Notes under the pieces: model-generated
Database searches by the model: none
Told to the model about the DNA's origin: nothing
What the model saw: the letters and a program-made list of their open reading frames with translations, nothing else
Part shown: in pieces, positions 1 to 21,794 of the stretch
How positions within the stretch are numbered: position 1 is the stretch's first letter
Layout of the letters: each line of letters opens with the position of its first letter
Made by a program: the position numbers and the translations under genes
NCBI GenBank assembly: GCA_043819135.1
Contig: JBDRFG010000019.1
Span: forward strand, 1-21,794
Source: Candidatus Eiseniibacteriota bacterium
GTDB taxonomy: Bacteria; Joyebacterota; Joyebacteria; Joyebacterales; Joyebacteraceae
Direction of reading: 5' to 3'
DNA length: 21,794 nucleotides

Positions 1-2
1 GT

Positions 3-36: not shown

Positions 37-116
37 GTCTGATGCTCATCCGTCGAGGCGGGCTAGCTCGCGTTCGCCCCTGCTTGCACCACCCTCTTGT
101 TCTTCACTCGGTGGCT

Positions 117-875
117 CTACGGCCGCCCCCCAACCATCGCCGGCTCACTCGCTGAACTCGCCGTGAACTCCATCTCCTCGACCAGAATGTCCGGCGTCAC
201 GACGGCCATGCGGTAGTACATGCCCGGGCCGACCGAGTGTCCCATGTTCGTGAGCGCGGGCTCCCTGCCCACAGCATAGATGTCCCGCAGCGACCGAACG
301 CTCACCTCATCGAACGCCACACCGCGCACTCGTTCCATCCGCCCATCGTCCGCGTAGACCTTGTATGCGACGACCGGCCCGGTCAGAAGCGTCGAGCCAG
401 GCTCGTCGAAGCTTTCGGTCCACTGGTACTGCTGTGAGATCTCCGGCACGTCCAGTCGCGTGATCAGGAGCCCGAACTCGCTGTCGAAGTCCTTGGCCAG
501 GCTCCGGAGTTCCTTCACCAGGTCCTTCTTCGTCTTCTCGGATTCCACGAACAGGTTCGAGGCCGCGGGCACGGTCCACTGGTTCGGGAACGTGATGGTG
601 TGGCCGTTCGACTCCGTCAGTTTCTTCGTCGGGCCGCGACTGGTCGGCAGACCCACGAGCCGACCTTCCTCCACGAGCGTCACGTCCTCGGTCGGCACGC
701 CCTCGTCGTCCACGAGCTTGTGTCCGGCGAGCTTCATGCCCTGCCAGCTCTCGCGCGTGGGCTCGTCTGTCACCGTCATGAACTCGGGCATTACCCGGCG
801 GTTGAGCTTCCCCGCGAGCTTCGCGCCGGGCATGTAGTCCTGCATCCATTCCTCGGCCAGAAGGGGAGACTTCAC
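117..875 (-). pseudogene. TldD/PmbA-family metallopeptidase, 3' fragment only (copy 1, open frame, 5'-truncated)
   Basis: Contains the TldD/PmbA C-terminal pattern DEPT…DDEGVP…LVEEGRL…SNGH…P.ASNLFVES. Homology to copy 3 stops at ~873-880 and an in-frame stop lies shortly upstream, so the N-terminal half is missing. Confidence 0.8.
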
Positions 876-1046
876 GGGCGTAACGCGGAAGCACGCGGTT
901 CCAGCCTCCGGATTACTTCGGTATTATGGGGAGGACGTCCCGTCGGACTGGACCAGCGACTCTGCACCGTGTCAGACAGCATGGCTCTTGCAGAATGCGG
1001 GCGGGAGGTTTCCAGAGCCCCGAGCCCCTCCGGCAAGAGCCCGACG

Positions 1047-2411
1047 CTACCTGAAGTCGTCAGGATTGAGCCCTGTCCGCTTCAGCAAGTCGTAGAGCCC
1101 ACGGGAGGAGAGCCCGGCCAACTCTGCGGCCAGCTGGATGTTCCCGCCGGCGCGGTTCATCAGCGCACGTGCGTACCGCTTCTGACAGGCCAACATTGCC
1201 TCACGGTAGCCACCCTCTGACGAGAGTCCTTCCACACCCGCATCATCGGGGAGCCAGAAGTCCTGCGGTCTCAGCACGTCGTCACGACTCCTTATCAGTG
1301 CCGCCTCCACTGCATTCCCAAGCTCTCGCACGTTGTTGCGGGGCCAGCCGTAGGCGCGGAGCTTCGTGATAGCCTCTGGATCCACTTCAGGAACGGGCTT
1401 CCTGTCTCTTGCCGCGTACTTCTCGGCGAAGTAGTGAGCGAGAAGAGGGACATCGTCGAGTCTCTCTCTGAGAGGTGGTACCCTGATCACGTAGGTGTTC
1501 AAGCGGTAGAGAAGGTCCATTCGGAACCGCCCCTCCTCGGCCATGTGGTCTACGTCGCAGTTCGTAGCCGAAATCACTCGGACGTCTACGTGAATCGTCG
1601 CGGTCCCTCCGACCCGCTCGAAGGTCCCTTCCTGCAGAACACGGAGGAGCTTCGGTTGCAGAGAAAGGTCCAGATCCCCAATCTCATCGAGGAACACCGT
1701 GCCTCCGTCCGCTCGTTCGAACCGCCCTTCCTTCGGCACGGCTCCTGTGTAGCCTGCCTTCTCCGCTACTCCGAAGAACTCGTTCTCAAGGAGCGTTCCC
1801 ACGACAGCTGGACATGAGGCGACCACAAGGGGCATGTCGCTGCGACGGCTCCTCTCGTGAATCCACCGTGCAACCAGCTCCTTACCTGTTCCAGATTCGC
1901 CGGTAATCAGCACGCTTGACTCGCTTGGAGCCACCTCCTCGACTTGGCGAAGCAGCTCCTCGATACAGCGGCTGGTGCCGACTATCTCGGGTAGGGATCT
2001 GCGAGCTTCATCGCGGACAGACGAGACCGCACGGCGAGTCCGCCTCCCGCTGATGGCCTTTGCCATGAGGCTCAGGAGTTCTTGTCTTCTTGGGGGCTTG
2101 ACTAAGTAGTGGAAGGCACCCGCCTTGATGCACTCAACTGTATCCCCGTGCTCCGCCGACTCGGTCACCATGATCACAGGCAGTGAGGGCTCACGCCTCT
2201 TGATTTCATTCAGGATCTCCAGCCCGCTCACGCCGTTGGGGAATCGCAGATCGAGGAGGACTACGTCCGGGACCCTTCTGTCGAGTTGCGCCAGGCCTGC
2301 ATCTCGTCCACCGGCGGAGGCCACGTCGTAGTCTGAGCGAATGAGACGACTTAGGAGCTCGATGTCCTCTGGAGCATCGTCAATCACAAGCGCACGCCGC
2401 TTACTCATCAC
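1047..2411 (-). CDS. Sigma54-dependent response regulator (REC-AAA+-Fis HTH, NtrC/AtoC family)
   Basis: Receiver (VIDD…VLLDL…KP), Walker A GESGTGKE, Walker B VFLDEIG, variant loop-1 AGYTGA, FRMDLLYRL and a C-terminal HTH (GGNIQLAAELAGLS…LY). Its start overlaps the kinase stop. Confidence 0.95.
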   Translation of the reverse strand: MMSKRRALVIDDAPEDIELLSRLIRSDYDVASAGGRDAGLAQLDRRVPDVVLLDLRFPNGVSGLEILNEIKRREPSLPVIMVTESAEHGDTVECIKAGAFHYLVKPPRRQELLSLMAKAISGRRTRRAVSSVRDEARRSLPEIVGTSRCIEELLRQVEEVAPSESSVLITGESGTGKELVARWIHERSRRSDMPLVVASCPAVVGTLLENEFFGVAEKAGYTGAVPKEGRFERADGGTVFLDEIGDLDLSLQPKLLRVLQEGTFERVGGTATIHVDVRVISATNCDVDHMAEEGRFRMDLLYRLNTYVIRVPPLRERLDDVPLLAHYFAEKYAARDRKPVPEVDPEAITKLRAYGWPRNNVRELGNAVEAALIRSRDDVLRPQDFWLPDDAGVEGLSSEGGYREAMLACQKRYARALMNRAGGNIQLAAELAGLSSRGLYDLLKRTGLNPDDFR

Positions 2412-4819
2412 GTTCTCCCAGTTAGCCGATCAGCTTCCGCCACACGGCGCATCGCGACACGAAACGTCGTGCCCTCTCCCGGTGAACTCCGCTCGACCCG
2501 GATCGAGCCCCCCAGCGGCTTCAGGATCTCCCGGGAGTAGTACAGCCCCTTCCCTCCACCCTCGGCCCTTGTTGTCCGTCCGTAGTCGAAGACACGCTCC
2601 CATTCGGTGTTTGGGATTCCACAGCCGTTGTCCGTGAATCTGAGGATTACGTGCGATTCGTCCCACTCCACACTGATACTGAGACTTGGGTCCTTCTCAC
2701 CCGCTGTGGCGCGAATCGCATTTGACATGAGATTGCTCACGGCCATCTGGAATCCCCTGGGCGACGCGTGACAGAGAGTCCCCGGAGCAATGTCGCACTC
2801 AAGAGAGAGATCGAGCCCGGCGTCATCCGCGTCTTCACGACACAACTGCAAGGAACGCTCGAGTTCGCGTCGCACATCGAGCAGATAGTCAGCCGCGACG
2901 CTCGCTCGCAGCGTGGCGAGGGCAGACTCGAGCTCATCCGCTATTGCGCTGAGCGCGGCAGACGACAACCTGGCTGGATGGACATCGGCCAATGCAGCGC
3001 TCAGGTCGTCCGTCTCCTCATCTACCGACTCAAGTGCGGTGCGCAACCGCGTCTGACCACGCTCTTCCGCGCTCCACGCATCGGCCAGCTCCAGGATCTT
3101 GGCGACGGAAGGCTTGGTGAACTCACAGTAGTTCTGAAGACTCTGCAGGGCGAGATCGGCCAGGTCGTCGCGCATCTCAGGGTCATCCTGCATGATCGTC
3201 GTCACCCTGTGTAGCGCCCTCAGGGGACGCGTCACTAGCATCTTGTCGTGCTGGCCCATCTCCAGTTCGCCGAGGAGCGCGAGGCCCAGGAAGTCGCGGT
3301 CGACAGGGACGCGCGGTGAAGGTCCTCTGATGAGACCCGCAAGCGCAGATAGCACCTTCTTCCTCTGGGTTTCATACCAGATGCCTGCGGACACGACTCC
3401 CGACACGGCTATTGACAGTGCCACCCAGGACACAGGCGGCCACAGTCGGACCACCTGCAGCAGGTGCCATCCGTCAGAGATGACGAGCAGCTTCTCCCCA
3501 GGCGTCCCGTCTCTGTAGCTTCCGAGGAAGCCTACCTCCTGACCCTCAGGCGGATCGCCGCTGGGCTCGTACACCGCACGGAGCTTGAAGAACGGCACGG
3601 CGGCGGCCAGTCTTCCGTTGCTGAGAACGGTCAGTATCCACGGACTGCCCGAGCCCGGTCTGGGGTGGAGTGACTCCAGCCTCGTCCGCTCCGCTAGCTC
3701 GATGGATCTGTCCAGATGTAGCTGACCATCGGAGACGCTGAACCATAGGATTTCACTCGAACTCGCGCAAACTGCGATCCGCCGAGACCGTCCAGTCCGG
3801 TCGGGGTACGCAAGGGGGATGCCTCCATGTCCAGGGAACGTGACCTCATCCACCAGCCTCCCCGTCATGCCCTCTCGGATAGCTAGACGACTCAGAGGGG
3901 GGTGAGACTGTCTCTCCGGTGTGGTCATTGTGATTAGCTCCGACCCCGCTTGTTCTGTGAGATCGGCTGCGGCCACAAGAACGCTAGTCACAGGACCGCC
4001 AAGCTGCTCGCACCACAGCAGCTCACCACCGGCTGTCAGGACTCCGGCGTAGGATGCCGTATCTGCCGTGCCGGCGAACACCGCACCATTGCAGGGTGCT
4101 GCACTTGCGAACGCAAGCTCATCGATTCCGTCGTCGTCAAGATCTACCGCACGGAGTGATCGGACCTGAGCACCTCCTGGGTGTCTCCACAGCACCCCCT
4201 GCAACCCGCTGTCGAATAGGATTATCTCGCGCGGCAGCCTGTCTCTGTCAGCAGCAGCTGATACAGCGACACCCCAGCCTGACTCCCCAAGGTCCATGCT
4301 AGCCACGCACTGGATCTTTCCGTCCCAGAACCGATCACCTGTTGCGTCGACGCCGCTCGATACATACGTGTCGGCAACGATCCGGAGATCTGCATCGTAC
4401 GCCCGCAGTCGAACCGAGTCCTCGACGACGTACTCAAGCAGTACCTCCTCCAATCCATCGCCATCGATGTCGGTGCACGGGAGAAGACGTACCTTGCGCC
4501 ACCGTGGGTGGTCGGGTCCGGGGTTTCTTTGTGGCCCTTCACCAGCCGTGGCTCCGGCCAGAGAGATCATGCTCAGGGACCCCCCGGGCTCCGACATCGT
4601 CACCAGTTCATCCCGGCCGTCACCATCGAAGTCGGACACATCACCTGACGTGTTGGGACCCCATCTCTTGGACCACACGGGCCGCAGGCCGTGCGTGCTG
4701 TGCGCTCCAAGCCAGCCGGCGACCTCCCACGCACCCAGCAGGACAGCTGCGAGGGCGAGCCAGGATGCGAGGAAGAGAATGTGGGTTCTTCTCGATGGTG
4801 GGGCAGGCTCAGCAACCAA
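2408..4819 (-). CDS. Membrane sensor histidine kinase with FG-GAP/VCBS-like extracytoplasmic repeats (~803 aa)
   Basis: N-terminal TM segment, DxDGDGxxE repeats, second TM (WVALSIAVSGVVSAGIW) and HATPase boxes NLMSNA, DNGCGI and GGKGL. I moved the start from 5185 to TTG at 4819 because GGAGG lies 7 nt upstream and a sigma70 promoter is just upstream. Confidence 0.9.
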   Translation of the reverse strand: MVAEPAPPSRRTHILFLASWLALAAVLLGAWEVAGWLGAHSTHGLRPVWSKRWGPNTSGDVSDFDGDGRDELVTMSEPGGSLSMISLAGATAGEGPQRNPGPDHPRWRKVRLLPCTDIDGDGLEEVLLEYVVEDSVRLRAYDADLRIVADTYVSSGVDATGDRFWDGKIQCVASMDLGESGWGVAVSAAADRDRLPREIILFDSGLQGVLWRHPGGAQVRSLRAVDLDDDGIDELAFASAAPCNGAVFAGTADTASYAGVLTAGGELLWCEQLGGPVTSVLVAAADLTEQAGSELITMTTPERQSHPPLSRLAIREGMTGRLVDEVTFPGHGGIPLAYPDRTGRSRRIAVCASSSEILWFSVSDGQLHLDRSIELAERTRLESLHPRPGSGSPWILTVLSNGRLAAAVPFFKLRAVYEPSGDPPEGQEVGFLGSYRDGTPGEKLLVISDGWHLLQVVRLWPPVSWVALSIAVSGVVSAGIWYETQRKKVLSALAGLIRGPSPRVPVDRDFLGLALLGELEMGQHDKMLVTRPLRALHRVTTIMQDDPEMRDDLADLALQSLQNYCEFTKPSVAKILELADAWSAEERGQTRLRTALESVDEETDDLSAALADVHPARLSSAALSAIADELESALATLRASVAADYLLDVRRELERSLQLCREDADDAGLDLSLECDIAPGTLCHASPRGFQMAVSNLMSNAIRATAGEKDPSLSISVEWDESHVILRFTDNGCGIPNTEWERVFDYGRTTRAEGGGKGLYYSREILKPLGGSIRVERSSPGEGTTFRVAMRRVAEADRLTGRT

Positions 4820-4851
4820 CGGTCGACCTCCAAGGGTGGTAGTTGAATACG

Positions 4852-4880
4852 ATTCTACGGTGCAGCATAGTGGACGGCAA
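4852..4880 (-). promoter_or_regulatory. Putative sigma70 promoter for the kinase-regulator operon
   Basis: The minus strand reads TTGCCG-17 nt-TAGAAT, ~30 nt upstream of the TTG start at 4819. Confidence 0.6.
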
Positions 4881-5193
4881 TGGATATGTTTCTCAGGGCG
4901 GGTGCCCATGCACGCTGGCTTCTGGGAGCTGGACGGCCGGCAACCTGAAGTTTGCTTCCTGCAGTGAGCGGACCTGCAGACGCCACGACCTGCGCCGGTG
5001 GGGCCGTAATCCGCGTTCGCTCGGCCTGTGTGAAGAGGACTTCGCGGCCTTGCCCATACGGTCCACGTGGGAGAGCGAACGACGAGTCCGATCGGTCCTC
5101 TAACAGGTTTCCACTTGGGAAGTTGCGGGCACCCCGAATCCGAACCGATCTCGACCCAGCTGAGGCACGGAACTTGGTTACCCAATAGGCTGC

Positions 5194-5227
5194 GGTGGAG
5201 TGCTCGATCCCGTTGCTGGACTCCACC
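5194..5227. promoter_or_regulatory. Inverted repeat, candidate enhancer (UAS) or hairpin
   Basis: Perfect 8-bp dyad GGTGGAGT-N18-ACTCCACC, ~120-150 bp upstream of the candidate sigma54 promoter. Confidence 0.35.
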
Positions 5228-5344
5228 CGGGAGTCGATGATCCTGACGAAAAAGGGGGGGTCTGGTGGGAGGCGTCGGCCCTGCCTCACGGAGCTACTCG
5301 CTCAGCCACACGCTCGATGCGAGAAGATGGAGGTCGTCTACGGG

Positions 5345-5360
5345 CGGCACGTTCCTCGCC
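5345..5360 (+). promoter_or_regulatory. Putative sigma54 -24/-12 promoter
   Basis: cGGCACGttccTCGCc has GG-N10-GC spacing with the GGCACG core. It lies ~95 bp upstream of the 5453 start, next to a sigma54 activator gene. Confidence 0.55.
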
Positions 5361-5452
5361 ACAACATGCTCGCGCGTGTTTCGCAGCCCGTCAGTTTGCA
5401 CACGGCAGCAGATGGGGCACAGCTGCCAGGATGAAGGTGAGAGGAGGAGAAG

Positions 5453-6238
5453 ATGGAGAGAGTGATTATCGCTGCTCTGGTGCTGACAGCGGCCTTGGCG
5501 AGTCCGTCTTCTGCGGTGGCGCAGTGTCCCGCCGACAACGGGACCGTCGTCGCTCGCTATCAGCTTGACGAGGCCGATGGCCTCATCGCGCACGATGAGA
5601 TTGGCGGCCACGACGGCACGCTCATCAACGGCCCGACGTGGGATCCCAATGGTGGACATCTCTGCGGAGGCGGAGCCTTGGTTCTGGACGGCTTCAACGA
5701 CTACGTGGATCTGCCGTGGGGCGCCTGGGACGACTTCGGCCCGGGTGAGAGTTTCTGCATCAGCTGCTGCTTCTACGCCGAGACCGTGCTCGCGGGCTCT
5801 CCGCACATCATCGGTCGGTATCATCCATCGAACGATGGCGGCATGAGCATTCTCTATGGGCTTGAGTTTGAATCCGGACAGGATTACCCGGGTCATGTCG
5901 TGTTCTCTTTCAGGACGGACTACGGCGGCGGAGCCATCTACGTCATTTCGACGGAGCCGTACGAGCCAGGTGTGTGGCACAGCGTCTGTGGTGTGAGAGA
6001 TCGCGGTGCTGATGAGCTACGGCTGTATGTCGATGGGGAGCTGGCAGCTCCGCCTGTCTCGGATACATTCCCTGAAGATCAGGGGATGACGCAGAACCAC
6101 TTCGTGATTGGGCGAACCGGCGATTCCGATCAGGAGTACTTCACAGGGAAGGTCGACAACGTCGCGATTTGGCGAGGACTCGGACCGTGTCCTGCAGAGC
6201 AGGCGTCATGGAGTGTAGTCAAGTCGCTCTATCGCTAA
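5453..6238 (+). CDS. Secreted LamG/concanavalin-A-like domain protein with C-terminal SWSVVKSLYR tail
   Basis: Strong RBS (GAGGAGG) and signal peptide. LamG motifs ALVLDGFNDYV, WHSVCGV…LRLYVDG and FVIG…FTGKVDNVAIW. Confidence 0.85.
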   Translation: MERVIIAALVLTAALASPSSAVAQCPADNGTVVARYQLDEADGLIAHDEIGGHDGTLINGPTWDPNGGHLCGGGALVLDGFNDYVDLPWGAWDDFGPGESFCISCCFYAETVLAGSPHIIGRYHPSNDGGMSILYGLEFESGQDYPGHVVFSFRTDYGGGAIYVISTEPYEPGVWHSVCGVRDRGADELRLYVDGELAAPPVSDTFPEDQGMTQNHFVIGRTGDSDQEYFTGKVDNVAIWRGLGPCPAEQASWSVVKSLYR

Positions 6239-6499
6239 CCCGTGGTGTTCGCTAGCTGTGCCCCAGTGCGCCTCGTGCAACCCGGCTAGAGCCGGACGAG
6301 ATCGAAGGCCTCAGAGTTCACCGGAACCTGTGGTTAGACGGTGGGACTCCCCCGTACGGCGGCCAGGAAGCCGGGATGGTAGCAGCTGTGCCGAGACTCC
6401 GACCGACACAAAGCTCGAGTCGCAATCCTGGGGTTCATCAAGGCCGTGTACCGGTGAAGATCTGTCATGCGAGATGCACACTTGACGGGAGGTGAAGAC

Positions 6500-7318
6500 A
6501 TGAGAGCGTGGAGCAAGCGGTCAGTGGTCTGTTTCTCCGTCATCATCATCCTCTTGACTGCTTCGCCGCCTGTGGGGGCGGACTTCGAGCTTCGCACATG
6601 GGCGACGACTGCGGCGGCTCCGGCCGATGGCGGCTCACACAGCACCTCCACGAGTTTCGAGATGGTCTCCAGACTTGGCGGGCCTTTCGTCGGCAGCGCC
6701 GAGAGCCCCTCGTTCTCGCTGTGGGGATGCAGTGTGACTCCTGTGGAGGGGGCGTTCATCGCGACCGAGACCGAGCCCCTCTGCGTGACGCTCCGGTGGA
6801 CGGTGGAGCTCTTGCCTGAGATCGCGGGGTTCAACGTCTACAGGGCCTCGGCCGAGGAGGGACCGTTCGAGCGAATCAACCCGGGTCCGGACGACCTGCC
6901 CGCGGAGCCATCCGGCATATACGAGGACAGGACGGTGTGGCCCGGATGCCCCTTCTGGTATGAGCTCAGGGCCGCGATGTACGACGGCTCCGAGGACGTG
7001 GTGGGCGAGACGATCTCGCTGACCACGGACGGGAGGCTAGCCACGAAGCTCTACGCGGCTTCGCCGAACCCGTTCCGCGACGCGACGGTCATCCAGCACG
7101 ACGTCGCCCCCGGGACGCGCGACGCCAGGCTCGTTATCTACGACATAGCCGGACGCGCCGTGCGGAGCTTCGAGTCCGTCGCTCCGAGGGCGGGCAGGTA
7201 CTCCGTGATCTGGGACGGCACGAACGACCGAGGTCAGCGAGTGGCATCGGGCGTCTACTTCTGCTCGCTCGAGGCCGCCGGAGCAAGGGAGACGCGTCGC
7301 ATCGTCCATCTGCGCTAG
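6500..7318 (+). CDS. Secreted protein: short N-terminal module, FN3-like domain and FlgD-Ig (T9SS-CTD-like) tail
   Basis: RBS GGAGGTGA before ATG 6500 and a signal peptide. GFNVYRA…GPF…YED…WYELRA, then SPNPF…IYDIAGRAVR…WDGTNDRGQRVASGVYF. Confidence 0.85.
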   Translation: MRAWSKRSVVCFSVIIILLTASPPVGADFELRTWATTAAAPADGGSHSTSTSFEMVSRLGGPFVGSAESPSFSLWGCSVTPVEGAFIATETEPLCVTLRWTVELLPEIAGFNVYRASAEEGPFERINPGPDDLPAEPSGIYEDRTVWPGCPFWYELRAAMYDGSEDVVGETISLTTDGRLATKLYAASPNPFRDATVIQHDVAPGTRDARLVIYDIAGRAVRSFESVAPRAGRYSVIWDGTNDRGQRVASGVYFCSLEAAGARETRRIVHLR

Positions 7319-7365
7319 GCACACCGCACAACTACCACGCGTGCATTCGACATGAGGAGGGCGAC

Positions 7366-8889: not shown

Positions 8890-9050
8890 GCGAGCCTGGA
8901 ATCCCTGAGCGTCCAGATGCGGGCGGTCGAGATGCTCCGAGGGAAGGGCACAGGGGAGGCACCCGTCCGCATGGGCTGCAGCGCGTTACGGGTGCGTAGT
9001 GCGAGTGTCTTGGCGATGATTCCTGTATCAAGAGCGCCTCAGCGGCGACC

Positions 9051-11344: not shown

Positions 11345-11373
11345 TTGACATCCATTGGGAGCCACGCTAGCAT
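11345..11373 (+). promoter_or_regulatory. Near-consensus sigma70 promoter
   Basis: TTGACA (11345-11350), 17-nt spacer, TAGCAT (11368-11373). Confidence 0.75.
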
Positions 11374-11379
11374 TACAGT

Positions 11380-12400: not shown

Positions 12401-12422
12401 CGGGCAGGCTCCCTGAGAACGT

Positions 12423-12453
12423 GGACCCGGGGCGAAGGTTGTGCCCCGGGTCC
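12423..12453. terminator. Hairpin between convergent genes (possible bidirectional terminator)
   Basis: Perfect 11-bp stem GGACCCGGGGC/GCCCCGGGTCC with a 9-nt loop. U-tracts are weak. Confidence 0.6.
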
Positions 12454-12487
12454 TTCGCGTCTCCGATGCGCGAGTGGCGAGGGCAGC

Positions 12488-13215
12488 CTACGGCCGCCCC
12501 CCAACCATCGCCGGCTCGCCCGCACTGCTCGCCGTGAACTCCATCTCCTCCACCAGAATGTCCGGCGTTACGATGGCCAGGCGGTAGTACATGCCCGGGC
12601 CGACCGCCTGCCCCATGTTCGTGAGCGCGGGCTCCTTGCCCAGCGCGTAGATGTCCCGCAACGTCCGGATGCTCAGCTCGTCGAACGCGAGACCGCGCAC
12701 TGGCTCCATCCGACCGTCATCCGCGTAGACCTTGTAGGCGACGACCGGACCGGTCAGCAGCGCCGCCCCCGGCTCGTCGAAGCTCTCGGTCCACTGGTAC
12801 TGGCGCGAGATGTCCGGCACGTCCAACCGCGTGATCAGGAGCCCGAACTCGCTGTCGAAGTCCCTAGCCAGGTTCCGCAGCTCCTTCACAAGGTCCTTCT
12901 TCGTCTTCTTCGACTCAACGAACAGGTTCGACGCCGCGGGCACGGTCCACTGGTTCGGGAACGTGATGGCGTGGCCGTTGGATTCCGTCAGCTTCTTCGT
13001 AGGTCCGCGACTGGTCGGTAGCCCCACCAGCCGGCCTTCCTCCACGAGCGTCACGTCCTCGGTCGGCACGCCCTCGTCATCGACGAGCTTGTAGCCGGCG
13101 AGCAACTGATCCTCCCAGCTCTCTCGCGTGGGCTCGTCCCGCACCGTCATGAACTCCGGCATCACGCGGCGGTTGAGCTTGCCGGCGAGCTTCGCGGCGG
13201 GCATGTACTGCTGCA
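12488..13215 (-). pseudogene. TldD/PmbA-family 3' fragment (copy 2, open frame, 5'-truncated)
   Basis: By manual comparison over 238 aa it has ~27 differences from copy 1 and ~16 from copy 3. Homology ends at ~13215, about 30 bp short of where copy 1's homology ends. Confidence 0.8.
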
Positions 13216-13649
13216 GTGCACACCAGTTCTACTTGAGGAAGTCTCGAACTTGGCGGCACAGCTCGCCTAGGTACTGGCTACTGCCCGGCGTGCCCCAGCG
13301 ATCCCATGGGGTCCCTCGGAATCCCGACCGCGCGCAGCATGGTGGGAGCTGGGATTGGATTCCGCGCGCGCAGCAGGCCAGGGCCGCAACCTACTCAAGG
13401 GCCACCGCTGAGCACGTGGATTACCGCGACCTCCGCACGTTACCCCCATGCTCTTGTGATCGGCTCCGGCGATTCTCCTGACTGCTGGTTATAGTCTGGA
13501 TCCGCTGCGCACGGAGGCTAGGCGAGAGTGGTCCTCGATGGGAGCCTCGTGTATACTCACATCAACCAAGCTGATTCTGACTCACGACACCATCGCATTT
13601 CTATGTTCCTATCCGAAATGCGAGTAGACCGAGGCGGGTAGGACCTGAA

Positions 13650-16094
13650 TTGACGTGCTATCGAGGCGGTGGCAGTGTTGGGGACGATCGGCTCGCAGGA
13701 CTCACCCCGAGGACTGCGCGCGGACCAGAGCGCTCGCAGGTATCGCTCCTTGCGCTCGGTTTCGCTTGCGTCCTTCTGCTAGCGGCCTGCGAGAGAGGGC
13801 CGCTACGACTGAATCCATCTCCTGATAGGTACAGGTATGTCCTCTCAAACGCGATCCAGGTCATCGATCGCCCGGAGTTCATGGCGGCTGTGGACCTTGA
13901 CGGTGACGGCATCGACGAGGAAGTCAAGTACGCTGCCTCCTCGAGTGGCACTTCGTTTCTTTCTATCGCACGTGTGGGTGAGGACCGTCACTACTCCCTC
14001 TGGACAAAGAACTTCTTCCATTCCGCCGGGCTGGCTGGCCTCGTGGATGTGAAAGGCGACTCGGTTCCAGAGCTAGTCTGGTGGGAGCAGCTCGACGCGG
14101 GTTGCTTTCGCATCTATCTGTCGCAGATCGCGATCGACAGCGCTGCTGCACGGGACTCCACTCTCGCAGAGTTTGATTGGAGTCTTGAGGGTAAGCTCCT
14201 ACCCGACGGCCGCTGGGGCGGCACCGTCCTGCTCTGTGGCGCGCTTGATTCCGACAACGATGGCGTGAACGATCTCGTGGCTCTGGGATTCAACACTGGA
14301 ATAATGGAGGAGCCGCGAACAGTGTGCTTCTGGGATCTGGGAACCGGCGAGATGGTTCAGAGCGTACCTACTGGGGCAACTCCCACAGGTGGATCGGCGA
14401 TTGCTGACATCAACGATGACGGATCCGACGAGCTGGTCCTGGGGCTTGAGGCGCCGGGCAACGGTGTCTCAGCCGGGGACTGGGACGACAGTCACTCCTA
14501 TGTCGTGGCGTTCGAGTCCGACGGCTCGGTTCTGTGGTGGCGCGAGCTGGGAGTCTACTCGAGCAATGTCGAGCTTGTCGTGGATGACTTGGACGGCGAC
14601 GGAACGTCCGAAGTCGTAACGATCGTAGGAGGGCATTCGGAACAGGACATCGACACGTTCGGGTTGTCCATATGGCGGGGACATGACGGTGCGCAACTGG
14701 CAGAAGCGCGCTTCGGGTGCTCTGTGAACGCGGTCGAGACGCTTTCCTCTGAAGTGGGCACACGGGTCTTCACGGGGTCATCTGACGGGTTTGTCAGACG
14801 CCTCTGCTGGGACGGGGACAAGCTCTCCATCGAGGCGGAACTCGATTGCCTAGACGCGGTCGAGTGTGTTCGCGCGATTCGGCTTGAGCCGGCGCCGACG
14901 CCTCCGCGGCTTGTGGTAGGTACTGTCAAAGGCGGCCTCGCCGTCCTGGATGAGAACTTGGTGCCTCGCGCGTTCGGCGACGTCGGGGAAATCGTCAGCC
15001 ACTTGCGACCAACCATGGTTACCGTTGACGGGCGGGTGACGCACGGGGTGCTCGTGCTCGCGCAGAGCAGGGTCTTCAGACTTCATCTCACGAGACGGCC
15101 GCTTCCCGCGTGGATGAAATCTGGCCTGCCGGCGGTGATGGTCCTCCTAGCGCTCGGTCTCTTCCCGCTGACACGACGAACTGCGGTCGCGTGGCTCAGG
15201 AGGTGGCTCCTGCCAGGCAGGACGCGTGGAGTCGTGCTTGACAGTCTACTTGATTCGCTTACCGTGGTAGGCCATGGGAAGCTGGCTGCGACATCGACAT
15301 TGAGAAGACTGCGTGAGCAGTTGCGGATGCTGCAGTATCACGAAGGGCCTCCGCCGGAGGCGTTCCGGCAGCGCTTCAAGCAAGCCGTGGGCGATGTCGG
15401 TGACATTTGCCTGCCCGGGATCCGCGAGATCGTCGAGGAGGCTGAGCGGCTTGGCCTCGTTGTCGCACAGACTGCTACGTTGAGAACGAGCCTCGAGAAG
15501 CTCACGAGGATACTGGAGGAGCGACTTGGGGCGGGTCTCTCCCGAGTCGACGCTGCAGCGCTGGGTGCGCGCTTGGACAGCCTTCTGCCGAACACAGAGG
15601 AGTCGCTCCTAGCCATTCGGCGGGCCGCCGAGTCCGAGAGATCGTCAGATCTTGGTGCAGAACTCAATCGGGCACTCAACTCCAGCGCTGCGGAGTCAAG
15701 GCGCCTGGATGCCGAGGTGGTCGTCAAAGGATGCGAGCAGCTTGCTGGAATCCGTGTGCTGGGGACAGCGAGCGAGCTGTCTTTTGTTCTCGAGAATCTG
15801 CTGGCGAACGCCCTGGGTGCAGTACGGGACCAAAGAGTCCGAGGCGTCAGCCTGTCAGTCACGGTGGACTCTGCCTACGTTGTTGTCAGAGTTGCCGATA
15901 CCGGGAAGGGCATAGCTGTTGAGGACCACACGCGGGTCTTCATGACCGGCTTCAGCGATAAGACGTCGGGAGGGCACGGGCTACCGCTGAGTCGGGAGAT
16001 CCTATCTCGGCGTGGAGGCTCCATTGACCTCATCGAGTCCTCGCCGGGGAACGGAGCTGTTCTTGAGGTGCGATTCGCCATCTGCAGGAGTTAG
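13650..16094 (+). CDS. Membrane sensor histidine kinase with FG-GAP-like repeats (start uncertain)
   Basis: Hydrophobic N-terminus ending LLLAAC and DLDGDG repeats. TM segment LPAVMVLLALGLFPL and HATPase boxes NLLANA, DTGKGI and GGHGL. Homologous to the kinase at 2408-4819. Confidence 0.9.
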   Translation: MTCYRGGGSVGDDRLAGLTPRTARGPERSQVSLLALGFACVLLLAACERGPLRLNPSPDRYRYVLSNAIQVIDRPEFMAAVDLDGDGIDEEVKYAASSSGTSFLSIARVGEDRHYSLWTKNFFHSAGLAGLVDVKGDSVPELVWWEQLDAGCFRIYLSQIAIDSAAARDSTLAEFDWSLEGKLLPDGRWGGTVLLCGALDSDNDGVNDLVALGFNTGIMEEPRTVCFWDLGTGEMVQSVPTGATPTGGSAIADINDDGSDELVLGLEAPGNGVSAGDWDDSHSYVVAFESDGSVLWWRELGVYSSNVELVVDDLDGDGTSEVVTIVGGHSEQDIDTFGLSIWRGHDGAQLAEARFGCSVNAVETLSSEVGTRVFTGSSDGFVRRLCWDGDKLSIEAELDCLDAVECVRAIRLEPAPTPPRLVVGTVKGGLAVLDENLVPRAFGDVGEIVSHLRPTMVTVDGRVTHGVLVLAQSRVFRLHLTRRPLPAWMKSGLPAVMVLLALGLFPLTRRTAVAWLRRWLLPGRTRGVVLDSLLDSLTVVGHGKLAATSTLRRLREQLRMLQYHEGPPPEAFRQRFKQAVGDVGDICLPGIREIVEEAERLGLVVAQTATLRTSLEKLTRILEERLGAGLSRVDAAALGARLDSLLPNTEESLLAIRRAAESERSSDLGAELNRALNSSAAESRRLDAEVVVKGCEQLAGIRVLGTASELSFVLENLLANALGAVRDQRVRGVSLSVTVDSAYVVVRVADTGKGIAVEDHTRVFMTGFSDKTSGGHGLPLSREILSRRGGSIDLIESSPGNGAVLEVRFAICRS

Positions 16095-16096
16095 CC

Positions 16097-17479
16097 ATGG
16101 CTGACAAGAGACCTAGAGTGCTCATCGTCGACGACGAGATCGGATACGCGGAGGACGTCGCGGCGCTCGTATCAGAGGAACTCAGATGCGACGTTGTAGG
16201 AGACCCAGTGTCAGCCATGCGCAGTATCCAGCGCTTCTCGTACGACCTCGCCTTCCTTGATGTAGATCTTCAACACGAAACCGACGGGATCGTCCTACTC
16301 AGGCAGATCAAAGAACAGGATGCGTCGCTCCCCATCGTGATGCTCACCAAGACCGCCGATCTATCCACGATCATTGAGAGCGTCAAGAGCGGCGCGTTCT
16401 ACTACGTTGTGAAGGGCACTGACCCTTCCGTTCACAACCTCGTTCACGTGGCCAGCCTGGCCATCGAGGACGCGCGGCTGAAGAGCGCCGTCGCCTGGAT
16501 CGAAGAGGAAGAGCAGGGAGCAAGCGACGGAATAGTGGGGGATAGTCCGGCCACGATGAGGCTCAAGGACGAGATCTCGAAGGTCGCAGAGCTGGAGTGC
16601 TCCGTGCTGATCACGGGTGAGTCCGGAACTGGGAAGGAGCTTGTTGCGCGCGCCCTGCACGCCGCCGGCGGGAGGGCATCGCGTGGGCGGTTCGTCGCGG
16701 TCAACTGTGCAGCCTTTCCCGACCAACTGATCGAAAGCGAACTCTTCGGTCATGAGAAGGGCGCGTTCACGGGCGCTGACAGGCGACGTATCGGAAAGTT
16801 CGAGCACGCCGCGCGCGGGAGCATCCTCCTGGACGAAGTCGGGGACATGCCTTCCGGAGGCCAGGCGAAGCTCCTGCGAGTACTACAGGAGAAGTGCTTC
16901 GAACGAGTGGGGGGCAACCAAACCGTCGAAACCGACGCGCGGATCATCTCTTCGACGAACCGTGATCTTGCTGAGCGCATCAAGTCGGGAGGTTTCCGTG
17001 AGGACCTGTACTACAGGCTTGCCGAATACGTCATCTGCGTTCCCCCGCTTCGGGAGCGTCCGGAGGACATCGCCGCCATCGCGAGACACTTGGTCGCCGA
17101 ACTGGCAAAGCACATCGGGCGCAGCGAGATGGGGATATCGCAGGCGGCTCTGGATGCGCTACGCGGGCGGGATTGGCGAAGGAACAACGTCCGTGAACTC
17201 AGGAACGTACTGCTCGCTGCCATGATTCGGTGTGACGAAGATACCGTTCAACCTGGGCACCTCTCATATGACAGATACGAGCTCACCGACAGTCCCCCCA
17301 TGTACGAAGAGGCGAAGCAGGAGGCGGTCAGCCAGTTCAAGCACCGCTACCTGACTTACCTGCTCAGGCTTGCCAGGGGGAGCATCTCTGCCGCGGCCAA
17401 GATGGCGGGGATCCAGCGGTCCGCGTTTCACCGTCACCTAGTGGAGATCGGCGTGGACGCGAAGGTGTTCAAGGAGTAG
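16097..17479 (+). CDS. Sigma54-dependent response regulator (NtrC/AtoC family)
   Basis: Receiver (IVDD…FLD), GESGTGKE, VNCAA, ESELFGHEKGAFTGA, LLDEVG, FREDLYYRL and a C-terminal Fis-type HTH. Confidence 0.95.
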   Translation: MADKRPRVLIVDDEIGYAEDVAALVSEELRCDVVGDPVSAMRSIQRFSYDLAFLDVDLQHETDGIVLLRQIKEQDASLPIVMLTKTADLSTIIESVKSGAFYYVVKGTDPSVHNLVHVASLAIEDARLKSAVAWIEEEEQGASDGIVGDSPATMRLKDEISKVAELECSVLITGESGTGKELVARALHAAGGRASRGRFVAVNCAAFPDQLIESELFGHEKGAFTGADRRRIGKFEHAARGSILLDEVGDMPSGGQAKLLRVLQEKCFERVGGNQTVETDARIISSTNRDLAERIKSGGFREDLYYRLAEYVICVPPLRERPEDIAAIARHLVAELAKHIGRSEMGISQAALDALRGRDWRRNNVRELRNVLLAAMIRCDEDTVQPGHLSYDRYELTDSPPMYEEAKQEAVSQFKHRYLTYLLRLARGSISAAAKMAGIQRSAFHRHLVEIGVDAKVFKE

Positions 17480-17519
17480 CTCCCGCTTCGCTGCGTGAGG
17501 GACGGATTCCGCAGAGAAC

Positions 17520-17615
17520 TGTCACATCCGCGTCGAATCGTCACATTCCTGTCACTCCCACAACCTCCCAGTTCTGCGCGCGCTACGTGCGGATACGCGC
17601 TGCCATGTCACATCC
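17520..17615 (+). repeat. Short direct repeats (TGTCACATCC x2 plus two partial copies), candidate activator sites
   Basis: TGTCACATCC at 17520 and 17606, CGTCACAT at 17539 and TGTCACT at 17550. Confidence 0.45.
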
Positions 17616-17812
17616 CCTATGCGTATGGCTGCCCGGGCGCCGCCATGATCCTTCCGAACAGCCACGAGAAGTCGGCGCTAACACCTCTGCCGTGTTGCAG
17701 ATACGGATTCCCGGTCCCCAGTAGCATGTTCCGGAACAGAAGTTGCGTTTCCCGCGTTCGCACGTGGAGGGCCGACTAGCCTGTGCGGTTGCCCTCTCTG
17801 CCAATGTGAGTT

Positions 17813-17828
17813 GGGCACGGCGCATGCC
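17813..17828 (+). promoter_or_regulatory. Putative sigma54 -24/-12 promoter
   Basis: gGGCACGgcgcATGCc has GG (17814-15)-N10-GC (17826-27). It lies downstream of a GAFTGA-containing activator gene and ~120 bp upstream of the 17947 start. Confidence 0.6.
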
Positions 17829-17946
17829 GGCGCGGGTGCAGCTGATGCGCGGTTCGTTAGGTGGCTGTGGGAAGCAGTTTGGGCTTCATTTGCGAAAGGA
17901 GGTCGCGAACCTGATGCAGTCGCTTCCGTAAGAATGGGAGGGCAAC

Positions 17947-18678
17947 GTGACTAGTCTCGCATATCGTGTTTCCGCACGTCCTTTGGTACTCGCTACATGC
18001 CTCGCCCTCATGCTCGCAGTGGGCGTCGGCCACGCGGTGGTTGTGTTCGAGGAGCACTTCGACGATCCCAGCTTTGCACAGTGGGTCATCCATGGCGACG
18101 GTGTCCTCAACCCCGGCGGCGTTGCCGAGATCGTCTGCACATACTGGTGGTACGATGGGTTGGAGACCGTGGAGCGCTTCAACCGCGCCGCGGCTCGTGA
18201 CGCGATGGTCGTCGAAGGTTGGTTCAAGATGGACGCGGCCAACCCGCGCTGCGCGAGCATCGTGTGGCTCCAGGATGGCTGGGGCCACCCCTACAACTGC
18301 TACGCGGTTGAGTTTGCGAAGGACCAGGATGCACCCGGTGACAATCGTGTGTTCTTCGCGTATGACCTGGACGATCAGGTCGTGACCTACGAGGCGATCG
18401 GTGTCTTCCAGCCCGGCGAGTGGATCGGCTGGAGGTTCTGCCTCATGGCTCCCGGATGCGAAGTCTGGTTGAACTACGGCAGCGGCTGGATCCGCGAGTT
18501 CACTGAGACGGCCGGGACGTTCGCTCCTGTCGCAATCAACCTCCACGGTAGCGGTGACACTTCCGGTGGGGGAGGGCCGAACACCTCCTACTGGGACAAC
18601 ATCCTCGTGCATACCGAGATCTCGTGCCCGGTGTTGGAGAGCAGTTGGTCCTCGATCAAGGCGCTGTACAGACAGTGA
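17947..18678 (+). CDS. Secreted hypothetical beta-rich protein with C-terminal SWSSIKALYRQ tail
   Basis: RBS GGGAGGG, GTG start and signal peptide. VFEEHFDD…W…YWDNILV suggests a jelly-roll-like fold (inference). The tail matches that of 5453-6238. Confidence 0.8.
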   Translation: MTSLAYRVSARPLVLATCLALMLAVGVGHAVVVFEEHFDDPSFAQWVIHGDGVLNPGGVAEIVCTYWWYDGLETVERFNRAAARDAMVVEGWFKMDAANPRCASIVWLQDGWGHPYNCYAVEFAKDQDAPGDNRVFFAYDLDDQVVTYEAIGVFQPGEWIGWRFCLMAPGCEVWLNYGSGWIREFTETAGTFAPVAINLHGSGDTSGGGGPNTSYWDNILVHTEISCPVLESSWSSIKALYRQ

Positions 18679-18827
18679 ATCGGCGGCTGCGACATTCGCA
18701 ATGCAATGAAGTCGGCTCCCACAGCCATCTGATCAGCGAATGCAGCTATCACACTTCGGTGTCACGCGTCTCGAGGGCTGCGTCGTATTGGCGGAAGCAG
18801 GAGTCGCACCACAGAAGGGAGGCTGGA

Positions 18828-19412
18828 ATGAGATCTGTCGTCGAGCGAAGGCCGAAGCATCTCCTAGTCGCGTGTACCGCGGTGCTGGCAGTCTGCATCT
18901 CGGTGCACTTGGTTTGGGCCGCCGACCCGATACTGGCCATCCGGCTCGGGGGCGGACAGGGTCGAAGCTATGGGATGGAGGATGTCGAGAGGATCACCTT
19001 CGACGTCGGTACGATTCACGTCATTACGCCCGAAGAAACAGACGACTACCGGGCTTGGTCATCTGAGCGGATCGAATTCCTGTGGGATGAATGGACTGGT
19101 ATCTCGGAACCTGATACCGGGGCTGATGTCCCAGGAATCCCCCACCTGCGGCAGAATAGACCAAACCCTTTCTCACCGGAGACATGGATATCCTTCGAGC
19201 TTCCGCAGGCAGGACGGACGGAACTCATGGTCTACACCGCTAGTGGTCGTCTTGTCCGCACCCTTCTTGACGAGGAGTGCATGGTCGGCCCAAACGCCGT
19301 GCTCTGGGACGGACGCGACGGATCGGGCCGCGATGTGGCAAGCGGCGTGTACTTCTGCGCACTGGAGGCTCCAGGGGTCAAGGAGAGCCGGAAGATGATC
19401 CTGCTGCGTTGA
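18828..19412 (+). CDS. Small secreted protein with FlgD-Ig tail
   Basis: RBS GGGAGG before ATG 18828 and a signal peptide. Two short repeats ending ERITF and ERIEF, then LRQNRPNPF…WDGRDGSGRDVASGVYF. Confidence 0.85.
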   Translation: MRSVVERRPKHLLVACTAVLAVCISVHLVWAADPILAIRLGGGQGRSYGMEDVERITFDVGTIHVITPEETDDYRAWSSERIEFLWDEWTGISEPDTGADVPGIPHLRQNRPNPFSPETWISFELPQAGRTELMVYTASGRLVRTLLDEECMVGPNAVLWDGRDGSGRDVASGVYFCALEAPGVKESRKMILLR

Positions 19413-19488
19413 GGGTCGGACTCGAGGGCAGCCATAAGAGGATTCCCATCAGCTACATGTAGGAACCGGAGCCTAGAGAGGAGAGGGT

Positions 19489-20544
19489 GTGATGACGAAG
19501 GTAGTGACTGTGGTCTTGGCAATTGCCATTCTGCTCGGCGCGTCCGTGAGTCAGGCAGCGTGGAATATGGAGGTGCATGAGGGAGCGACGCTTACCGAGT
19601 TCGAGCTGTCCAGCATTGACAGCCTGACGTTCATCTTCCACGAGGATCTCCTGATGGTTCTCGTTCCCGCTGGCTCATTCACGATGGGCGATGGAGCAGC
19701 GGCCTGTGGTCAGAGCGAGCGAGAAGTCACCCTCACGCGTGACTTCTTCCTTGGCGTGCGTGAAGTCACGAATCAGGAGTACATGGAGGCTCTCCAGTGG
19801 GCCTACGATCACGGGTATGTCACCGCCACGGTCACATCGGTGAGTGACGGCCTAGACGGGAGTACCGTGGAGCTCCTGGATCTGGATAGCTCCTACGGCT
19901 GCGAGATTCAGTTTGACGGTGCGGGGACGTTCTACCTGCGGGAATCGCCGTCGGGGCACGCGCAGGGCGCGTATCCAAGCGGGTACGACCCCGCGGACCA
20001 TCCGGTCAAGGTGGTGACCTGGTACGGAGCAGCAAGGTACTGCGACTGGCTGAGCCTCCAAGCCGACTTACCGCGGACCTATGAGCATTCGGGCGACTGG
20101 TCGTTCAGCGTGGGGCATCCGTACGACGAGGCTGGCTACAGACTCCCGACTGATGCCGAGTGGGAGTACGCGGCGCAGTGGGATGATGAGCGCATCTACC
20201 CGTGGGGGGATGAGGCGCCGGACTGCAGCCGGGCCAACTACTCTGGCTGCGTGGGCTGGACCACTCCTGTCGGCAGCTATCCTGACGCTCCGCAAGCGCT
20301 AGGGCTTTCTGACATGGCTGGCAATGATCTGGAGTTCTGCAACGACTGGTGGTCCTGTGACTTGGGTACGGCATCTGTGACCGACCCAGTAGGACCGGAG
20401 AGTGGTTCGGCTCGTGTGATTCACGGCGGATCTTGGCGCTGCGTGGCCCCGTACTTGGCGTGCGCCCATAGGGAGTCCTACGCGACGCCGAGCTTCGTCA
20501 AAGACTGCCTCGGGCTTCGCGTCGCCAGAACCGCTTCTCCCTGA
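19489..20544 (+). CDS. Secreted formylglycine-generating-enzyme (FGE-sulfatase/SUMF1) fold protein
   Basis: MVLVPAGSFTMG, EVTNQEY, HPVKVVTWYGAARYCDW, YRLPTDAEWEYAA, YPWG, GLSDMAGN and GGSW. Confidence 0.9.
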   Translation: MMTKVVTVVLAIAILLGASVSQAAWNMEVHEGATLTEFELSSIDSLTFIFHEDLLMVLVPAGSFTMGDGAAACGQSEREVTLTRDFFLGVREVTNQEYMEALQWAYDHGYVTATVTSVSDGLDGSTVELLDLDSSYGCEIQFDGAGTFYLRESPSGHAQGAYPSGYDPADHPVKVVTWYGAARYCDWLSLQADLPRTYEHSGDWSFSVGHPYDEAGYRLPTDAEWEYAAQWDDERIYPWGDEAPDCSRANYSGCVGWTTPVGSYPDAPQALGLSDMAGNDLEFCNDWWSCDLGTASVTDPVGPESGSARVIHGGSWRCVAPYLACAHRESYATPSFVKDCLGLRVARTASP

Positions 20545-20780
20545 CTCCCTGCTCCCGAGTCACCGCATCCTCCCGGGGCACAGCGACGTGCATGAGCGTG
20601 GAATACGAAGTGTCGCGACAGCGGGCGCAGGCATCTAAGCGTGCGTCGACGTCGAACGGCAGCGCGGCATGACCCAAGAGGGGACCGCCCACAGCGGAAG
20701 CGCGTTCGGCACCGCAGCAACCCTGCCGGTGCTGCGGAGTTTGCTGGGCCGTGCTCGCTGCCCGGGAAGGATGCGCCATC

Positions 20781-21010
20781 ATGCGCGCACCAGTGTGTTG
20801 CCTGGCGCTTCTACTGGCTGCGATTCTCTCGCAGTGGGGTGCGTCGGCGTGATTCAACCCCCTCGCGGGACCGATGCCTTTGGCAGTGGTTAATCGGATC
20901 CCTGGCTCATGGCGATTGGGTCCGACACACCAAGGACTGCGGTCTACGAGGATGGAACGATCACTTATGTGCAGTCCGCTGTGCGCCCCCGTGTGTTGTC
21001 AGGCCATCTC
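20781..21010 (+). pseudogene. Possible remnant of a secreted protein or lipoprotein gene
   Basis: A purine-rich RBS-like stretch precedes ATG 20781, which gives a signal-peptide-like MRAPVCCLALLLAAILS that stops early. In another frame, LAVGC and a protein-like DPWLMAIGSDTPRTAVYEDGTITY run into the stop of TldD copy 3. Confidence 0.3.
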
Positions 21011-21794
21011 CTACATCCCCGGCCGCCCCCCAACCATCGCCGGCTCACCCGCGCTGCTCGCCGTGAACTCCATCTCCTCCACCAGAATGTCTGGCGTGAC
21101 AACGGCCATGCGGTAGTACATGCCCGGGCCGACGGACTGCCCCATGTTCGTGAGCTCGGGCTCCTTGCCCAGCGCGTAGATGTCCCGGAGTGTCCGGATG
21201 CTCAGCTCATCGAACGCGAGACCACGCACGGGCTCCATCCGACCATCGTCCGCGTAGACCTTGTAGGCGACGACCGGTCCCCGTCAGAAGTGCCGAGCCC
21301 GGCTCGTCGAAGCTCTCGGTCCACCGGTACTGACGTGAGATGTCCGGCACATCAAGACGCGTGATCAGGAGCCCGAACTCGCTGTCGAAGTCACGAGCCA
21401 GGTTCCGCAGCTCCTTCACCAGGTCCTTCTTCATTTTCTCGGACTGCACGAACAGGTTCGAGGCCGCCGGCACGGTCCACTGATTCGGGAACGTGATGGC
21501 GTGGCCGTTGGATTCCGTCAGCTTCTTGGTCGGGCCGCGGCTGGTCGGCAGCCCCACGAGCTTTCCGTCCTCCACGAGCGTCAGGTCCTCGGTCGGCACG
21601 CCCTCGTCATCGACGAGCTTGTAGCCGGCGAGCAACTGACCCTCCCAGCTCTTGCGCGTGGGCTCGTCCCGCACCGTCATGAACTCGGGCATCACGCGCC
21701 GGTTGAGCTTCCCAGCGAGCTTCGCGCCGGGCAAGTAGTCCTTCATCCACTCCTCGGCGAGGAGGGGAGACTTCGCCGGCGACAGCTGCCCGGC
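21011..21794 (-). CDS. TldD/PmbA-family metallopeptidase, 3' part (copy 3; continues beyond the window; +1 frameshift at 21279-21282)
   Basis: The frame is open from the window edge (AGQLSPAKSPLLAEEW…), beyond where copies 1 and 2 start. An extra C (CCCC, where copies 1 and 2 are one base shorter) splits it into ORFs 21207-21746 and 21011-21238. It ends GGRPGM* rather than GGRP*. Confidence 0.75.

Follow-up and report, generated by a model that had tools for sequence, protein, structure and literature searches.

Anatomy of the locus

The 21,794-nucleotide stretch analysed here (the window) is the complete contig C19 of a 2.69-Mb metagenome-assembled genome (MAG) of Candidatus Eiseniibacteriota, which comprises 174 contigs and is 92% complete and 1.5% contaminated. 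It carries three copies of the 3' end of a pmbA/tldE-like gene and is read as part of a tandem-accretion island at the pmbA/tldE-like gene of a tldD-tldE-ispG-selB locus. We refer to the source MAG as G000 and to related genomes by other G numbers. The repeated gene ends, or tails, are named W1 to W3 in the window and D to F on a second contig of the MAG, C12.

A preliminary description of the window had reported three same-strand copies of the end of one gene, separated by cargo blocks of ~11.6 and ~7.8 kb, with copies 1 and 2 truncated at their 5' ends at different points, and all of this was borne out. The tails (W1, 117-880; W2, 12488-13215; W3, 21020-21781) lie on the minus strand and are mutually 87.7-90.8% identical over 726-762 bp. 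All three match the Pfam domain PmbA_TldD_3rd, and the homology among tails ends at the stop codon. W1 is a displaced tail of ~760 bp with a 252-codon open frame that starts at an A/CGCC junction (the slash marks the boundary). W2 starts ~35 bp later and has an open frame of 238 codons.

Copy 3 (21011-21794, minus strand) is a homologous copy, as described, but not a third fragment. The end of C19 and contig C4 share 81 identical overlapping bases, which join into a full operon of tldD and the pmbA/tldE-like gene. Copy 3 is therefore the 3' end of a complete gene downstream of tldD that continues on C4, with the junction position at 21781, and copies 1 and 2 are displaced tails. The joined gene has a +1 frameshift in copy 3 near position 21280 and encodes 504 aa, compared with 567 aa for the intact copy on C12. 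The repeated gene has no HExxxH motif; HEIFGH sits in the upstream tldD. On sequence grounds, the repeated gene is the PmbA/TldE-like partner and not tldD itself. The flank behind copy 1 (37-116, minus strand) is common to G002 (93.5% identity over 124 nt) and G001 (91.7% over 205 nt), and because of this shared flank copy 1 is read as the original, most displaced tail.

Further copies in the genome

Contig C12, extended by contig C108, contains a tldD 3' fragment with an intact tldE (D). A cargo block of 19 kb separates D from a deleted tail (E), and a second block of 3.8 kb separates E from another tail (F). Behind tail F follow a kinase gene, a large serine recombinase (LSR) gene and a primase gene. 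Extending the contig, as the preliminary description had proposed, yielded the full operon, through C4. Together with the copies on C12/C108 there are six in G000: three on C19 (with C4) and three on C12. No overlap of contig ends links C12 and C19. Other contigs of the bin also occur as duplicated pairs, 85-95% identical to each other, and two tmRNA genes are among the duplications.

Directly upstream of the truncated C12 tldD, C108 (L004) encodes a primase-helicase of a TOTE conflict system and an SDH-type protease. On a further contig, C65, the region upstream of tldD is present a second time, together with 3.7 kb of inserted genes and a 5' part of tldD that has an internal deletion of ~200 bp. 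C65 is 99% identical to G002 over 1.8 kb, though the two species are only ~84% identical at ispG-selB. This near-identity suggests recent transfer or co-binning.

Tails share one start behind unrelated flanks

Tails W1, E and F and one tail of G020 (G020a) begin at the identical position. No two of the left flanks of W1, E and F are related (pairwise p 0.56-0.75), and neither E nor F has a flank that resembles selB or upstream tldE (p 0.55-0.63). The boundary is sharp: from the first bin on, 16-20 of 20 nt in W1 and F agree with full-length alleles, and the left arm of W1 is ~73% identical to selB. That arm (881-946, minus strand) consists of 66 bp of a decayed selB 3' part fused to the tail start, with 51 of 70 columns matching the selB of contig C53, a similarity equalled by none of 300 shuffles and none of 500 random segments (nhmmer E 0.008). 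G020a has the same junction position, with 218 bp of selB/ispG at 92% identity to the left of the tail. Such a selB-tail fusion is the junction that would be expected if the segment between the tldE core and the selB core had been circularised or duplicated. We detected no selB/ispG remnants upstream of W2, E, F or the C12 tldD junction.

Because a sharp boundary lies at one position behind three unrelated flanks, a sequence-directed crossover is favoured. Inspection of the junction sequences for the known motifs led us to reject integron, Xer/dif and restriction-site readings. In the full gene there is a hairpin 3' of the junction; neither W1 nor F has conserved it.

Tails are alleles of different lineages

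The six copies of G000 are pairwise 86.7-91.2% identical, with ratios of nonsynonymous to synonymous substitution (dN/dS) of 0.06-0.29 (0.14-0.19 among the window tails), and their distance to G002 is similar (87-91% identity). Private changes, given as nonsynonymous/synonymous, number 7/13 in W1, 0/7 in W2 and 6/15 in F, where the neutral expectation is a ratio of 3.1. They are thus mostly synonymous, as in full genes; only E is decaying. Since identities of 87-91% go together with low dN/dS, the six copies are best read as alleles from different lineages that were functional until recently, not as duplicates made in place. In-place duplication with neutral decay was rejected on the divergence and on the mostly synonymous private changes.

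In a tree, nine close tails form a group without resolved branching except for the pairing of D with F. Informative sites among the tails showed no clean mosaic blocks, a comparison of low power. The longest exact matches among tails span 32-65 bp, and those between window tails 35-55 bp.

Cargo blocks of the window

Cargo B (947-12487; 11.6 kb) encodes a sigma-54 response regulator, an FG-GAP histidine kinase, a LamG protein, secreted proteins with FlgD-Ig and SBBP domains and unassigned open reading frames (ORFs). Cargo A (13216-21010; 7.8 kb) encodes an FG-GAP histidine kinase, a sigma-54 regulator and three further proteins: an unassigned secreted one, one with a FlgD-Ig domain and one with an FGE-sulfatase domain. 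The GC content is 62.1% in cargo B and 61.4% in cargo A, against a genome median of 64.4%, and their tetranucleotide distances fall at the 92nd and 95th percentiles, respectively, among 259 windows of 8 kb. Homologs of cargo B in relatives reach only 65-78% identity and occur piecemeal. The kinase-regulator pair of cargo A has counterparts of 71-72% identity at other loci of G045 and G046, and homologs of its FlgD/FGE pair lie among LSR attachment (att) sites in G013.

The preliminary description had found no integrase, transposase or terminal inverted repeat in the two blocks, and its statement stands. Pfam revealed no integrase or transposase among the 16 window ORFs scanned, and no terminal inverted repeat was found at the window cargo blocks. 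When 13 recombinase, transposase and primase proteins from G000 and a congener were used as tblastn queries, the cargo blocks yielded no match below E 0.2, and none of the four blocks tested (window and C12) held a recombinase remnant; control cassettes on C137 and C68 showed LSR remnants in the same search. More broadly, the units contained no recombination or mobilisation genes by Pfam on the window and C12 ORFs and tblastn on the four blocks, relaxases not having been specifically searched for. We found no intact parent integrative and conjugative element (ICE) or integrative and mobilizable element (IME), and tblastn placed no recombinase or primase remnant in the blocks. Fresh tails together with the lack of an integrase remnant in 4/4 blocks suggest that the units arrived already integrase-less.

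Several cargo genes recur elsewhere. The FlgD-Ig gene of cargo B and the 507-aa gene next to it (6584-7796) are 70% identical to a resident pair of G000 (C74:11215-12432), which is also matched in five of the six congeners compared. An FG-GAP histidine kinase beside a sigma-54 response regulator is found at 1047-5185 and 13650-17479 of the window and upstream of tldD (L001:2901-8690); in the C4 version FG-GAP sits in an adjacent gene, and the module recurs in these islands. FGE-sulfatase-domain proteins occur in three cargo blocks (L002:2247-7413, L003:5010-7409 and window 19489-20544), and those directly behind tails D and E have 3' ends that are ~79% identical. Finally, a 259-aa ORF (11621-12400) has no Pfam, NCBIfam or PHROG match, and its DNA is 70-74% identical to several other genera.

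LSR elements at a neighbouring tRNA-Met att site

At its left edge the window contains a degenerate tRNA-Met 3' end (3-36, minus strand) that matches the last 36 nt of the tRNA-Met on C68 at 92% identity and includes the att core GGCCCCCGCTACCA (3-17). Weak tRNA similarity reaches to position ~80. Copies of the core also stand at the tRNA-Met locus and on several contigs, where an LSR gene end often comes next. Because 12 of the 17 cores that share the next two bases of the window edge run into a C12-type LSR end, the contig probably breaks at an LSR element, and 3-36 is probably its attL-like end. A search for contig-end overlaps found no DNA past this edge in the bin. A right junction matching the window att lies on C53 beside ispG, and G002 has the empty form. 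In G001 the tail flank and core are directly followed by a 618-aa LSR. On C12, 3.5 kb separate tail F from an LSR that has resolvase, recombinase and zinc-ribbon domains and is the only recombinase of the genome linked to the tail locus.

The preliminary description had seen no recombinase. This holds for the blocks but not for the locus, given the LSR att at 3-36 and the LSR genes behind tails on C12 and in G001. Among the findings that would speak against its model it had named a nearby integrase with short att cores that explains the junctions; a short att core is present next door, but it differs from the tail junction. With up to two mismatches allowed, no LSR att core occurs inside the cargo blocks, and the LSR system does not by itself explain the tails.

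Other recombinase genes of G000 comprise full or partial LSRs on C12, C107 and C42, a serine recombinase fragment on C21 and seven tyrosine-family matches. The LSR on C42 has its end at tRNA-Asn; for the one on C107 no partner repeat turned up. C12-type LSR genes or remnants occur in 9 of the 31 group genomes and approach full length only in G000 and G002. A partial integron-integrase-like gene lies at a contig end (C126:1-768), three tyrosine-recombinase matches cluster on C165, and C76 is a phage-like contig with a tyrosine recombinase. No tails were found in IMG/VR (by protein and by two DNA patterns) or in GenBank phages, and the LSR att pattern was absent from viral contigs.

Separate cassette arrays with the short tRNA-Met 3' att core are present in G000 (C68:16923-27760, C137:500-3575, C92 and C97) and on L134, L135, L137, L138 and L170, and many of these cassettes start with only the C-terminal 45-150 codons of an LSR. 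According to passages of the Islander paper of 2014, no serine integrase was known to have a tRNA gene as its target (PMC4383910). The empty att beside tldE is palindromic, consisting of a tRNA T-arm stretch, the core and an inverted T-arm stretch. In several genomes similar tRNA-like half-sites stand behind unrelated genes, as if the landing site itself moves; the palindrome and the half-sites were seen at L030:4810-4860 (G002), G000 C53:1884-1912, L139:7550-7570, L187, L189 and L201. A 419-aa cassette gene, which we take from its ending to be OmpA-like, precedes the right att at the ispG and tRNA-Met loci at 96% identity (C53:72-1664, C68:26053-27645, C17:2230-2615).

The locus in relatives and in reads

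Tail DNA was found in 8 of the 31 genomes, G000 included. The empty state, tldD-tldE-ispG-selB with a single copy, is present on two metagenome contigs (L043 and L045). G002 carries one full copy followed by the copy-1 flank, the empty att and ispG. In G004, two tails lie on one 2.5-kb contig, and the 580 bp between them are 96.9% identical to C108. The tail locus has other neighbours in G008, G013 and G014. In G020 a tail fragment lies directly behind tRNA-Met, and the 5' part of tldD/tldE was not found in that genome. The content of the locus is thus variable among relatives, and the comparison proposed in the preliminary description recovered an empty locus, a single copy and a tail-cargo-tail pair. 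Its view of the unit as tail plus cargo, and of the locus as an accretion hotspot, agrees with the variable content in L043/L045, G002, G004 and G000.

Tail-like partial proteins from other metagenomes were unplaced in DNA and hence not counted as junctions. Extra ispG copies in G024 and G016 were considered as mobile arms and dropped; the G024 layout is near-identical to that of G005, lies with core genes and is possibly mis-binned.

A single public sequencing run contained 8% of the window words, with exact pieces of both cargo blocks at depths of 2.7-3.6 that are possibly not independent. Its pieces were short, no single one crossed a tail together with the DNA on either side, and the run neither confirmed nor refuted the array or the frameshift.

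A proposed mechanism and its alternatives

We propose that the island grew by tandem accretion of integrase-less units, resembling cis-mobilizable elements (CIMEs), through sequence-directed recombination in trans, and that these units are carried by LSR elements; we give this proposal about an even chance of being right. Each unit would combine cargo with a replacement 3' gene end, ~760 bp long and reaching from a fixed point as far as the stop codon, and would join at a short core, A/CGCCG, within the gene. In favour of such a core, the junction positions in tldE, selB and tldD all read A/CGCC in most alleles, and ACGCC occurs at 0.2% of genome positions. The incoming tail would restore the gene and shove the resident tail downstream, which would produce the order gene, cargo A, tail, cargo B, tail. 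The units were probably integrase-less (CIME-like) on arrival, and the crossover would be directed by sequence and catalysed in trans by a predicted recombinase. At least one unit type may have arisen by looping-out of a donor segment between the tldE core and a similar selB core, and the selB arm would then record how a unit was first cut from the donor chromosome. Movement between cells would most likely occur in cis with LSR-plus-primase elements at the tRNA-Met-like att ~100 bp behind the last tail; the G020 tail behind tRNA-Met, lacking a detected operon 5' part, fits such passenger carriage. Homologous recombination between tails of 87-91% identity is a likely second route of gain and loss.

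Several observations weigh against this proposal. Neither a circle, nor an excision, nor a read across two tails was seen in the one low-depth run, which covered window positions 1-20000 with copy 3 outside. Because of the other duplicated contig pairs in the bin, C12 may come from a co-binned relative, and the six copies were then not necessarily in one cell. The A/CGCC motif is short and GC-rich and was picked after the fact. At the G020a junction 6 bp fit neither partner, W2 has its later start, and two other tails, G020b and G004b, are much shorter. An inverted-repeat symmetry common to all junctions was not found, and the left arms are not conserved as the P arms of an att site should be, one of them being plain host selB DNA. 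The neighbouring LSRs use the tRNA-Met core, distinct from the tail junction, and no recombinase was found that is tied to the A/CGCCG core or cognate to the unit ends. Finally, it is the integrase-less units that sit closest to the target gene, an order opposite to the rule for streptococcal CIMEs.

Because one arm is host-derived and no enzyme was found, a model based on homologous recombination stays alive. Here the units would be integrase-independent cassettes that go back to one rare microhomology event between tldE and selB, followed by RecA-dependent Campbell integration of circles or transforming DNA through the 760-bp arm, an explanation that we consider possible but hold only tentatively. 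Recombination with the working gene would keep the arm fresh up to the homology boundary, and the left flank would decay or be replaced. We hold equally tentatively that the locus may be an accretion platform without a dedicated recombinase, from which donor segments between the tldE and selB points, with cargo, loop out and re-enter other strains or species through the homologous tail; the tail would then be a homology arm that renews itself and at the same time mends the target gene. The left arms of W1 and G020a are host selB, tldE and selB share ~6-8 bp at the junction, the W1 left flank contains no recognisable element arm and no block holds a recombinase remnant, all of which speak for this model, as do the lesions clustered at the starts of W2 and G020a. 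The arm is presumably long enough for recombination, and recA, comEC and dprA are present, a weak indication as they were also matched in 10-14 of 14 control genomes. However, E and F begin at the exact position without a selB trace, and random erosion should not stop twice at one base; the start that W1, E and F share behind unrelated flanks, with W1 and F undecayed from the first codon, is hard to explain. Divergence between the tails amounts to 9-13%, their longest exact matches span 32-65 bp, and RecA works less efficiently on such divergent sequences. The informative sites, at low power, showed no clean mosaic blocks, and G020 has a tail without a detected 5' part of the target gene. The preliminary description had proposed Campbell-type recombination through the tail: the units indeed carry no recombinase of their own, but its premise of a locus without an integrase fails, and the shared starts are not easily explained. 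Since these long repeats carry allele-specific single-nucleotide differences about every 10 bp, crossovers in circles or empty sites could be mapped to a few bases, which would directly separate site-specific from homologous recombination.

That the units are ordinary islands of the e14 type, each of which lost its own integrase after insertion, appears improbable. The geometry is that of icd, e14 and icdC in passages of PMC13626634, and parts of PMC7563491 define CIMEs as elements decayed by deletion; yet 0/4 blocks hold a remnant although the control cassettes retain LSR tails, the displaced tails are barely decayed, and no tail turned up in viral contigs or phage records. We regard it as very unlikely that the adjacent tRNA-Met LSR makes the tail junctions at secondary sites in tldD, tldE and selB. 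The LSR att does lie between the tldE and selB sites, and 9/31 genomes contain LSR genes or remnants, but by eye the junctions resemble neither the LSR core nor its half-sites, and the cargo is free of LSR att at up to two mismatches. A chimeric assembly of several strains or species, which the duplicated contig pairs (85-95%, with two tmRNA genes) and the lack of a read set spanning the array would allow, is just as hard to credit. Exact matches between window tails reach at most 35-55 bp, shorter than the contig overlaps of the assembly (up to 141 bp), and swapping homologous copies should not be able to produce junctions of cargo to truncated tail. Furthermore, G004 shows tail-cargo-tail on a single contig, and the public run contained its exact pieces of both blocks at similar low depth, which may not be independent.

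Comparison with known systems

Many genomic islands carry no mobility gene at all, and how they move is described as an open question in the abstract of bioRxiv 10.64898/2026.01.13.699239. In streptococci, according to parts of PMC7563491, CIMEs are integrase-less blocks of 1-13 kb in tandem at the 3' part of a protein gene beside a recombinase-encoding element. The tldE units are likewise tandem units at a target gene, bounded by direct repeats derived from it; those in the window and on C12 lack recombination and mobilisation genes, within the scope of the search given above, and they stand in tandem with an integrase-encoding element, as seen from the LSR behind tail F, the LSR in G001 and the att at 3-36. 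In contrast to CIMEs, whose att sites are short, the boundaries here are 760-bp coding tails. The unit ends have a shared start and a short core, which differs from the LSR core. No remnant shows descent of the tldE units from an ICE or IME, the integrase beside them uses another site, and in the streptococcal arrays, as far as that source describes them, the integrase-less units lie farthest from the target gene. Membership of the tldE units among CIMEs is likely but unproven, because no cognate enzyme was found.

Islands at ssrA in Dehalococcoides, as presented in passages of PMC3146451, stand in tandem with CcrB-like serine recombinase modules and 20-bp ssrA repeats, and 15 of them lack an integration module. 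On that account they closely match the tRNA-Met LSR arrays of G000, whereas long coding tails delimit the tldE units, which show no tie to the LSR core.

The e14 element of E. coli has an on-board integrase and a replacement segment of ~200 bp. In parts of PMC13626634 it is described as a single prophage, excised site-specifically on SOS induction, that supplies the C-terminal end of icd and leaves an icdC fragment, and whose removal produces a chimeric gene. A tldE unit similarly carries a functional 3' replacement, as judged from the dN/dS of 0.14-0.19 among window tails and the homology up to the stop codon, copy 3 now being frameshifted. Its tail is ~760 bp, however, and the units are stacked. 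They are not e14-type elements because they have no on-board integrase by Pfam and tblastn.

Integrons, whose core motif is GTTRRRY, share with the locus the arraying of independently acquired modules, but the tldE units are 3.8-19.1 kb long, contain several genes and are bounded by coding tails (no attC covariance model was run), and their junction has no GTTRRRY core. No adjacent intI/attI was found; the sole IntI-like gene is partial and lies on C126, which has no end overlap with C19, C4, C12 or C108. The tldE array is not an integron, and the term integron-like, used in the preliminary description, fails in its strict sense on the size and multi-gene content of the units.

Islander relies on the same displaced-fragment signature but demands an integrase in each tandem member, according to passages of PMC4383910. 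In the literature searched, we found no tldD/pmbA-family gene serving as an accretion target, which does not show its absence from print. If an ordinary integrase turned up, the locus would simply add one more target gene to those known, its replacement segment being unusually long. The unusual points of the island beside these systems are its tail of ~253 codons and its selB arm.

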